Part shown: positions 5,088 through 6,254 of the stretch, one piece after another
Position numbering within the stretch: position 1 is the first letter of the stretch
Layout: each line of letters starts with the position of its first letter
From: Promethearchaeum syntrophicum
GTDB taxonomy: Archaea > Asgardarchaeota > Lokiarchaeia > Sigyniarchaeales > Promethearchaeaceae
Length of the DNA: 32,000 nt
Direction of reading: 5' to 3'
Assembly: GCF_008000775.2 (NCBI RefSeq)
Contig: NZ_CP042905.2
Coordinates: 3,870,001 to 3,902,000, forward strand
Made by a program: the position numbers and the translations under genes
Notes under the pieces: model-generated
What the model was told of the DNA's origin: nothing
Database searches by the model: none
The model's input: only the letters and a program-made list of their open reading frames with translations

Positions 5088-6254
5088 ATGATTGAACAAA
5101 TTTTAATTATGAGTAGTGGGGGAATACCTTTGTTTACTTGGACACCACCAAAAATTTTTTCATCAGATGGTGATGAAGAAAATTTTGAGAAAAAGAAAAG
5201 TACGGAGGAAAATCTACTTTCGGGATTTTTTACTGCTTTAAATATGTTTGCGGAAGGGCAAAAAGGAGAAGAAATTAAGGAAATTACTTTAAAAGAAACA
5301 ACTTATATTGTTGATAAAACCAATCAAATATTGTTTGTTATTAGTACCAGAAATAATGCATATATAAATTTGATAAAATTATTAGTTGATGAAATAAAAT
5401 CCCGATTTTTTATTGCGTATCCAGATGCAGAAAAAAATTTTACTGGGAATGTCAGAATTTTTTCTGAATTTAATCAAATTCTTGATAACATCTTAAATTC
5501 ATTCAATTATTTTGATATTTTGAAATTTACCGGTGATTTTTTTAAAGAACGTCTAATAAAATCCATATTATTAGTTGACCGAAATGAGGGGAAACCGCTA
5601 TTTGTAAAAGCCCAAGAATATTCAGATCGAAATATACTTACTTTTCAAGTAGAAATTATTTTAAAAGCAGGAGAACGACTCCTTAAATTATTTCAAAATG
5701 ACAAAATTGAAAATATTGTTGCTTTATCACAGAAATATCGAAGTTTAATAATCAAACCAACTACTCGTACAATTCTAATTGTGGAAAGTTCAGCCAATCA
5801 ACCAAAAAACCAATCACTTAAACCAATAACTCCAAAACAACTTAAAAAACGAATTAAAACTCCAGGAAAGTTATTATTTGAATCTAATGAAAATTTTTAT
5901 TTAATAGATCAAATGGGAAATTTAATTCTTTCGAATAACGTTAAAATTGATGATGAAAAACAACAATTAGGAATTGAATTGGTTCCAATTCGTTCCGCTA
6001 TTGAAGAAATCTTTAAAAATATTTATCGAGATGCATTATTCCATTTATTGATTGTTGGAGAAAAAAATGATTATATTCAATTTAATTTGCATGATCATAT
6101 GTCGTTAATTGTGATCACACAGGAAAAATGTGGCACTATCGCTGATGTTATTGAGGATGTAGTTTCATATCGGGATCCAACGAAGAATAGAGAAAACATT
6201 TGGAAATTTAATTGTATTTTTAATAGACTTCATGAATTCTATGAAAAATTTTAA
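5088..6254 (+). CDS. Hypothetical protein with three tandem roadblock/LC7 (MglB-like) modules
   Basis: The track starts the ORF at TTG 5064. I prefer ATG 5088 (MIEQILIMSSGGIPLF...). Three repeats of the Robl_LC7-like pattern are visible: (1) ILIMSSGGIPLFTW...LLSGFFTALNMFAEG...IKEITLKETTYIVDKTNQILFVISTR; (2) IKSILLVDRNEGKPLFVK...ILTFQVEIILKAGERLLKLF...IENIVALSQKYRSLIIKPTTRTILIVESS; (3) FYLIDQMGNLILSN...IELVPIRSAIEEIFKNI...FHLLIVGEKNDYIQFNLHDHMSLIVITQEK. Confidence 0.65.
   Translation: MIEQILIMSSGGIPLFTWTPPKIFSSDGDEENFEKKKSTEENLLSGFFTALNMFAEGQKGEEIKEITLKETTYIVDKTNQILFVISTRNNAYINLIKLLVDEIKSRFFIAYPDAEKNFTGNVRIFSEFNQILDNILNSFNYFDILKFTGDFFKERLIKSILLVDRNEGKPLFVKAQEYSDRNILTFQVEIILKAGERLLKLFQNDKIENIVALSQKYRSLIIKPTTRTILIVESSANQPKNQSLKPITPKQLKKRIKTPGKLLFESNENFYLIDQMGNLILSNNVKIDDEKQQLGIELVPIRSAIEEIFKNIYRDALFHLLIVGEKNDYIQFNLHDHMSLIVITQEKCGTIADVIEDVVSYRDPTKNRENIWKFNCIFNRLHEFYEKF

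Follow-up and report, generated by a model that had tools for sequence, protein, structure and literature searches.

The tri-longin domain (TLD) guanine nucleotide exchange factors (GEFs) of Rab GTPases, Mon1-Ccz1, BLOC-3 and Fuzzy-Inturned, activate Rabs that give late endosomes, lysosome-related organelles and cilia their identity. Each is an obligate heterodimer of a Mon1-type and a Ccz1-type subunit, joined by sheets between the first (LD1-LD1) and the third (LD3-LD3) longin domains, and exchanges the nucleotide of a Rab with a switch-1 Tyr-Lys/Arg motif. Apart from the archaeal gene studied here, chains built from three longin domains are to our knowledge only known from the eukaryotic Mon1-Ccz1, Fuzzy-Inturned and HPS1-HPS4. 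This gene is located at positions 5088-6254 (+) of a 32,000-nucleotide stretch of the Promethearchaeum syntrophicum genome (contig NZ_CP042905.2, positions 3,870,001 to 3,902,000 of the forward strand), which is hereafter called the window. In the eukaryotic TLD subunits, the first longin domain (LD1) is canonical, the second (LD2) is of the roadblock type and the third (LD3) of the lamtor type (Klink et al., PMC8833172). A helix from the LD1-LD2 linker (αX) completes LD3 and a strand (βX) bridges the sheets of LD2 and LD3, a motif described as "unique and defining" (PMC8833172). In the Mon1-Ccz1 dimer, the α1 helices are placed alongside each other on a common β-sheet, and their surface serves as the dimer contact as well as the principal binding site of Ypt7 (PMC5216073); fungal Mon1 binds phosphoinositide membranes via a basic LD2/LD3 patch (PMC8833172). 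TLD RabGEFs are treated as eukaryotic (PMC8833172); a study of the evolution of BLOC-3 and Mon1-Ccz1 dates the paralogue split before the last common ancestor of eukaryotes (LECA), mentions Asgard archaea only for HOPS-like domains and names no prokaryotic precursor (PMC11513930).

The open reading frame (ORF) of interest spans 5064..6254 (+) and opens at a TTG codon. The gene itself runs from the ATG at 5088 to the stop codon at 6252-6254 according to the ORF listing and the N-termini of the homologues, since the latter all begin with MI(E/D)QIL. The region 5088-6254 (+) is a real, conserved gene. Its predicted parts are given below with the strands (E) and helices (H) of an AlphaFold2 model, numbered by amino acid (aa).

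5088..6254 (+): complete tri-longin gene, 388 aa (ORF list, homologue N-termini and ~30 full-length relatives).
5088..5417 (+): predicted LD1, aa 1-110, with the canonical longin order β1 β2 α1 β3 β4 β5 α2 (AlphaFold2 and PF19036); E2-9, E14-18, H30-58, E65-68, E71-78, E81-87, H90-110.
5214..5270 (+): LD1 α1 signature, aa 43-61, LLSGFFTALNMFAEGQKGE, within and just after α1 (alignment and column statistics).
5418..5552 (+): LD1-LD2 linker, aa 111-155, with four short helices at 122-125, 128-138, 141-147 and 150-154 (AlphaFold2).
5553..5795 (+): predicted LD2, aa 156-236, a ββαβββ core in roadblock-like order with the linker helices before it and helix 249-257 after it (AlphaFold2 and hhalign); E157-164, E170-175, H181-200, E207-214, E218-224, E228-235, H249-257.
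5796..5888 (+): basic LD2-LD3 linker, aa 237-267, containing KPITPKQLKKRIKTPGKLL (sequence and family consensus).
5889..6122 (+): predicted LD3, aa 268-345, a ββαβββ core (AlphaFold2); E269-274, E279-282, H291-313, E317-324, E327-334, E337-344, H368-386.
6123..6251 (+): C-terminal helices, aa 346-388, of which the long helix 368-386 closes LD3 (AlphaFold2 and alignment).

The AlphaFold2 monomer model, built from a shallow family alignment of 28 sequences, has a mean predicted local distance difference test score (pLDDT) of 85 and a predicted template modelling score (pTM) of 0.84. It consists of three consecutive ββαβββ(α) modules at aa 2-110, 157-257 and 269-386, the first of which has the order ββαβββα without an N-terminal helix. 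These limits coincide with the three modules that an earlier note on this DNA had placed at aa 1-125, 160-245 and 275-375, and the strand-turn motifs that it had singled out (SSGGIPLF, DRNEGKPLF and DQMGNLIL) correspond, in modules 1, 2 and 3 respectively, to the hairpin made of β1, a turn and β2. The internal repeat is also borne out by profile comparisons with hhalign, in which LD2 matches LD3 (E = 6e-5 over 67 columns) and LD1 matches LD3 (E = 0.006 over 37 columns), LD1 and LD2 showing no significant similarity to each other. Since the predicted modules and these two profile matches agree, the repeat is to be regarded as real at the level of the modelled fold and as partly visible in the sequence. 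A family member with only 19% identity, P0040, from a metagenome-assembled genome (MAG) of Kariarchaeaceae (Heimdallarchaeia), was modelled as a control for the structural matches of the window protein and has the same module order (pLDDT 84, pTM 0.80). Both predictions thus show three tandem longin-fold modules in one archaeal chain. Taken from the secondary structure of the model alone, the linear order of the elements is compatible with the series of canonical longin, roadblock-type and lamtor-type domains, and the LD1-LD2 linker sits where the αX helix of the eukaryotic TLD proteins would be. DSSP assigns no βX-type strand to this linker in either model; in the window protein it holds the four short helices at aa 122-154.

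Structural searches against the PDB relate the whole chain to one group of proteins. For the model of the window protein, Foldseek ranks 1-21 are all Mon1, Ccz1, HPS1/4, Fuzzy or Inturned chains (E 1.5e-9 to 2.8e-5), with a probability of 1.00 and 380-470 aligned columns that span the whole chain; for the P0040 model, ranks 1-23 are all TLD RabGEF chains (E 6.8e-10 to 1.8e-4). As far as the models can be trusted, the best whole-chain structural matches are therefore exclusively TLD RabGEF subunits, which are the very proteins that the earlier note had named. The next matches are the triple-PAS protein PpsR (4hh2; E = 4.5e-5 and 5.2e-4) and then single longin domains. The latter are the N-terminal domains of AP-1/2/3 σ and μ, TRAPP Bet5/Trs23, the SRX domain of the signal recognition particle (SRP) receptor and Sec22b, on which one module superposes with TMt 0.5-0.74 (E 1e-4 to 1e-2); LD1 of Mon1 is also found among the single-domain matches. 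In nearly every PDB entry, one and the same chain of the pair outscores the other by 1-3 orders of magnitude, a chain that is probably Fuzzy in the CPLANE entries.

The sequence evidence concerns the first module. The Pfam family PF19036 (First Longin domain of FUZ, MON1 and HPS1) matches aa 4-90 of the window protein (E = 1.1e-6), its score of 29.3 bits exceeding the curated threshold of 26.1; it is the only significant Pfam match of this protein, and the NCBIfam scan of the same protein returned nothing. The family match recurs at E <= 0.01 in 16 of the 28 family members (best value 2.8e-9), and five of the 28 match Longin (PF13774). Judged by these profiles, LD1 belongs to the FUZ/MON1/HPS1 first-longin family. 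None of the members matched Intu_longin_1-3, the models of the Ccz1/Inturned/HPS4 lineage, in the Pfam scans run. The PF19036 match, the missing match to the Intu/Ccz1/HPS4 longins and the preference for one chain of each pair together suggest a closer kinship to Mon1/Fuzzy/HPS1 than to Ccz1/Inturned/HPS4. By sequence, only LD1 is tied to the eukaryotic family, and the correspondence of LD2 and LD3 is structural only. The earlier note had described the modules as roadblock/LC7-like. The longin-family fold implied by this description holds (the PF19036 score exceeds its cut-off), but the assignment to Robl_LC7 (PF03259) does not, as this model matches neither the whole protein at E <= 1 nor the LD2-LD3 regions of the 28 members at E <= 10. 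The only trace of roadblock comes from a PDB profile search, in which LD3 matches dynein light chain roadblock without reaching significance (E = 0.76), and a PDB sequence search relates LD1, again non-significantly, to the SRX domain (E = 1.4). The modules are better named longin-type than Robl_LC7. None of the outcomes set beforehand as contradicting the note (fewer modules, another fold, or no roadblock or longin match) occurred.

Homologues of the window protein were sought with a family profile in an exhaustive search of 1.84 billion representative sequences. It yielded at least 150 matches, 17 of them below 1e-30, and the matches listed include about 30 full-length proteins of 340-390 aa, which form about eight groups at 30% identity. 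A word-index search with the window protein found only seven close relatives, the same search with the 28-sequence profile only 10 proteins, and a profile search of genome contigs one locus. The named members are all Asgard archaea (Promethearchaeota, Lokiarchaeota, Ranarchaeia, Heimdallarchaeum endolithica and Kariarchaeaceae). The triple architecture is old within Asgard and common to Loki-, Heimdall- and Ranarchaeia. Some members already carry database names: the Heimdallarchaeum member is called "FUZ/MON1/HPS1 first Longin domain-containing protein" in UniRef, and two members carry the JGI label "Roadblock/LC7/MglB family".

Conservation within the family decreases from LD1 to LD2 and from LD2 to LD3, LD1 being the most and LD3 the least conserved module in the column statistics. 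The invariant or near-invariant positions of the family alignment are S45, G46, F47, A50, F54, A55 and G60. Between β2 and α1 of LD1 lies an acidic, poorly conserved loop (aa 19-40, 5142-5207; pLDDT ~55), which is longer in the clade of the window protein than in most relatives. The C-terminal helices (aa 346-388) are shortened or missing in some subfamilies. LD2 is net basic, with 18 K+R and 11 D+E at aa 150-250, and the LD2-LD3 linker has eight K/R and a single D/E, with the family consensus K..K..KKP.K. By analogy with the basic LD2/LD3 patch of Mon1 (PMC8833172), this linker might be a candidate membrane- or partner-binding element.

The same profile search also brought up proteins that match LD1 only. 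Many of these are archaeal proteins of 120-250 aa and some have 400-870 aa (P0041-P0156); some add a TRASH or zinc-ribbon C-terminus and one adds a CN_hydrolase domain. The abundance of archaeal LD1-only proteins implies that archaea have widely reused the Mon1/Fuz-type longin domain as a module. Some of the matches of 400-870 aa were considered as eukaryotic HPS1 or Fuzzy, an idea that was dropped because a Pfam scan of ten of them revealed neither TLD nor longin domains.

These results may be explained in several ways. The explanation that we favor, and hold to be fairly probable, is that the window protein is a minimal, insertion-free Asgard TLD protein, that is, a homologue or counterpart of the TLD RabGEF subunits that would serve as a platform for GTPase regulation. 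It would be a prokaryotic counterpart, probably by homology, of the Mon1/Fuzzy/HPS1-type subunits and, more distantly, of Ccz1/Inturned/HPS4. GEF activity specifically is a more tentative proposal, to which we give somewhat less than an even chance.

Several observations weigh against this explanation. In both models, the full-length TLD matches have TM scores (TMq/TMt) of only 0.19-0.28 and root-mean-square deviations of 21-25 Å, which is about what a single matching domain of the three would give; no more than one domain can be superposed at once. The low TM and high deviation imply that the domains of the monomer models are placed otherwise than in the triangular arrangement of the solved TLD subunits. 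The likeness thus appears to be one of architecture and domain fold rather than of rigid-body arrangement, and the real placement may differ from that of monomer models based on a shallow alignment. Moreover, the LD2-LD3 regions of the 28 members have no Pfam match at E <= 10, Fuz_longin_2/3, Intu_longin_2/3 and Robl_LC7 included. Whether queried with the single protein, with the family profile or with that of LD2-LD3, sequence searches of the PDB brought up no TLD chain, and LD2-LD3 had no PDB match, so that the link to solved TLD structures is by fold only. No recognisable eukaryotic TLD protein is present among the family-profile matches listed. PF19036 also scores in some short single-domain archaeal longin proteins (27.5 bits in P0041), and the LD1 match alone therefore indicates a type of longin but not the triple architecture. 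Finally, neither a second TLD subunit nor a small GTPase gene is encoded within the 32-kb window, and the neighborhood of the tri-longin gene is conserved only among close relatives and differs between subfamilies.

Part of this evidence could be accommodated if an Asgard longin domain had independently undergone tandem triplication, the TLD proteins then heading the Foldseek lists only because they are the sole three-longin chains in the PDB. In that case, the protein would still be a small-GTPase platform (a GTPase-activating protein, a GEF or a scaffold, like MglB or Ragulator) but not an ancestor of Mon1/Ccz1. LD2 and LD3 are indeed still similar to each other (hhalign E = 6e-5) and yet devoid of any sequence link to eukaryotic LD2/LD3, the TM scores of 0.2-0.3 reflect another domain arrangement, and the LD1-LD2 linker lacks a predicted βX strand. 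The raw material would have been at hand, since PF19036-type longins also occur as single-domain archaeal proteins and 41 longin-like and 38 roadblock domains were reported in Lokiarchaeum (PMC4917890). Nevertheless, the order of the modules is compatible with that of the TLD proteins, with a canonical LD1, an LD2 preceded and followed by helices and an LD3 closed by a single C-terminal helix (PMC8833172). The FUZ/MON1/HPS1 signature is kept precisely in LD1, the catalytic domain of the eukaryotic proteins, and the architecture is old in Asgard, being shared by Loki-, Heimdall- and Ranarchaeia. We thus regard a separate triplication, together with the platform function that it would entail, as rather unlikely, at a little over one chance in four.

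A non-catalytic scaffold or adaptor akin to the longins of coats and tethers (AP σ/μ, TRAPP Bet5/Trs23, SRX, Sec22) seems improbable. The best single-domain superpositions are with AP-1/2/3 σ/μ, TRAPP Bet5/Trs23, SRX and Sec22b (TMt 0.5-0.74), and fusions of Clat_adaptor_s with Mon1-like and roadblock domains are listed for Asgard in the supplement of Eme et al. 2023, but these structural matches cover one of the three modules, with E 1e-4 to 1e-2. Since most such longins act on or beside small GTPases, a scaffold would in any case be a weak alternative rather than a distinct mechanism. Least probable of all is a tandem sensor of the PAS/GAF type, whose modules would bind small ligands or signal without GTPases as in triple-PAS regulators: longin domains do fall within a wider PAS/GAF-like fold group (PMC4917890), and the Foldseek list contains PpsR, bacteriophytochrome cores and a tandem PAS/dCache domain, to which weak matches to dCache_1 (0.003) and PAS (0.16) add up in one relative each among the 28 scanned, but these PAS/GAF-type structural matches fall 4-5 orders of magnitude short of the TLD ones (probability 0.4-0.97, TM 0.15-0.18), the recurrent Pfam matches are PF19036 (16/28) and Longin (5/28), not PAS or GAF, and ββαβββα with a long α1 is the strand order of longins.

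If the protein is indeed a TLD counterpart, a mechanism can be proposed. Dimerisation would take place via LD1, as in other longin/roadblock proteins, with the β-sheet extended across the two subunits and the α1 helices side by side, and the partner of the protein would be either itself or an unlinked paralogue, the former being suggested by the fact that no second subunit type was detected. The conserved α1 surface would then engage a GTPase of the Ras superfamily, of which Asgard archaea have many, and regulate the nucleotide state of this GTPase, most likely by exchange. Localisation or partner binding could fall to LD3 together with the basic LD2 and the likewise basic linker between the two. 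The roles of α1 and of the basic patch would here be carried over by analogy from Mon1-Ccz1 and from Mon1, respectively, to the archaeal protein. A bolder version, which we consider possible but doubtful, is that this family represents the direct pre-duplication ancestor of both lineages of TLD RabGEF subunits, a minimal, single-gene, homodimeric tri-longin exchange factor that would have activated a Rab/Arf-like GTPase on Asgard membranes.

The window has a G+C content of ~30% and encodes archaeal-type housekeeping proteins, namely a valyl-tRNA synthetase (ValRS), a TtuA-like protein, an ADP-forming acyl-CoA synthetase, GlmS and a SAM hydroxide adenosyltransferase. The ValRS shares 91% identity with the enzyme of a Promethearchaeota archaeon MAG and 63-67% with those of Harpocratesius, Hod-, Thor-, Odin- and Heimdallarchaeota, which places the window in the Asgard archaea, probably in the Lokiarchaeia (Promethearchaeia). 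The features mapped around the tri-longin gene are the following.

3039-4896 (-): three coiled-coil-like ORFs of 290, 140 and 170 aa, divergent and upstream of the tri-longin gene.
6232..6690 (+): 152-aa ORF, overlapping the tri-longin gene at its 3' end and antisense to the membrane-protein gene; probably spurious.
6270-7307 (-): 345-aa membrane protein, convergent and downstream, with an N-terminal multi-pass region and a C-terminal soluble domain of ~150 aa.
7826-11683 (-): 1285-aa ORF for a predicted polytopic membrane protein of very large size, coiled-coil-like at its N-terminus.
12199-14949: ValRS gene, class-I aminoacyl-tRNA synthetase.
16845-16920 (-): tRNA-Ala(CGC) gene.
~29570-32000 (+): leucyl-tRNA synthetase gene, extending past the end of the window.

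The coiled-coil-like ORFs have only sub-threshold matches (COG4_N 0.006, DASH_Dad1 0.014); among the loci of relatives (L002 to L008) they are kept only at that of the closest relative (L003) and are absent from L002, which carries a 52%-identical orthologue of the tri-longin protein. The 345-aa membrane protein matches nothing in the Pfam, NCBIfam and PDB sequence searches and bears a faint precomputed PF27323 "RdxA_C" annotation, a model missing from the copy of Pfam scanned. A V4R/Bet3-like identity was considered for it and dropped, as the Pfam, NCBIfam and PDB searches give it no support. Its gene is kept at L002-L004, not at more distant loci, and at L002 its orthologue is 72% identical as against 52% for the tri-longin orthologue. 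The 1285-aa ORF has no Pfam or NCBIfam match.

Searches of all ORFs of the window and of the related loci with the family and per-module hidden Markov models (HMMs) found no tri-longin paralogue in the window, nor beside the gene at L002-L007. At L008, a Promethearchaeota MAG, a 370-aa protein is encoded at 10339-11451 (-), two genes downstream of the family member P0026 and flanked by unannotated ORFs of 357 and 382 aa. Its C-terminal aa 256-379 match the LD1 HMM of the family at E = 9e-7, Pfam giving no match, and this locus may be a local cluster of longin-containing proteins. At L005, a 180-aa small GTPase of the Arf family lies at 6257-6799 (-), two genes upstream of P0040; it is the only GTPase near any member and the association is not conserved. 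The lack of linkage to GTPases agrees with a report on the cultured Asgard strain MK-D1, in which GTPase genes are generally outside roadblock/longin operons (PMC10933270). As a side observation, the window contains two class-I aminoacyl-tRNA synthetase genes, those of ValRS and of leucyl-tRNA synthetase.

An archaeal tri-longin protein was described nowhere in the literature searched, most subscription journals being outside reach, and the papers retrieved for the Pfam/InterPro identifiers and "three longin domains" deal with eukaryotic TLD proteins only. Mon1-type longins in Asgard are already known at the level of annotation, since Mon1-like domains of these archaea appear in a supplementary table of Eme et al. 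2023. The full three-domain correspondence in a compact protein appears to be undescribed. The compact Asgard protein, found in Heimdallarchaeia among others, would be a concrete candidate for the precursor of the TLD RabGEFs. If it does descend from their direct ancestor, the core that activates Rab7, Rab32 and Rab23 would predate eukaryogenesis, and the Mon1/Ccz1 heterodimer would have arisen from a later duplication of an archaeal homodimer. Alternatively, if the resemblance is convergent, Asgard archaea would have built multi-longin platforms on their own. With ~45 kDa and no long disordered loops, the protein is a tractable experimental target. It could help to learn in what way GTPases are bound and regulated by a tri-longin scaffold, whether a homodimer was the ancestral state and which Asgard GTPase this protein serves.

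The comparison with known systems may be extended from the most distant to the closest. TRAPP Bet5/Trs23, the N-terminal domains of AP σ/μ, the longin of Sec22 and SRX have one longin domain per chain; one archaeal module superposes well on them (TMt 0.5-0.74), but their E-values trail those of the TLD chains by 4-6 orders of magnitude. Among them, Bet5 and Trs23 pair through their longins, and this dimer has a part in Rab GEF activity (PMC5216073). MglB, LAMTOR and dynein light chain roadblock (Robl_LC7, COG2018) share the fold superfamily and are dimeric small-GTPase platforms, but they are single-domain proteins of ~100-160 aa that start with a helix, unlike the three-domain archaeal protein, which has no Robl_LC7 match. 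The Asgard entries of Eme et al. 2023 are at the level of domains, in heterogeneous clusters that also contain GTPase and roadblock COGs, and do not feature a three-domain architecture. Ccz1, Inturned and HPS4 have the same three-longin build and are among the 21-23 best Foldseek matches, but their chains score 1-3 orders of magnitude worse than the partner chain of the same entry. That partner lineage, Mon1/Fuzzy/HPS1, differs from the archaeal protein in its long loops, N-terminal extensions and extra domains, which are absent from the ~340-390 aa of the latter. The archaeal protein further departs from it in its global TM of 0.2-0.3, the lack of a sequence match for LD2/LD3, the lack of a predicted βX strand and the absence of a heterodimer partner among the ORFs searched. 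Yet it is also the lineage that the archaeal protein most resembles: both have three longin-fold domains per chain, and the secondary structure of the archaeal model is compatible with the order of a canonical longin, a helix-flanked roadblock-like domain and a domain closed by one helix; the archaeal LD1 passes the Pfam model of the lineage (PF19036) and is the most conserved module; the archaeal LD2 is basic; and the best whole-chain Foldseek matches of two distant family members lead to this lineage.

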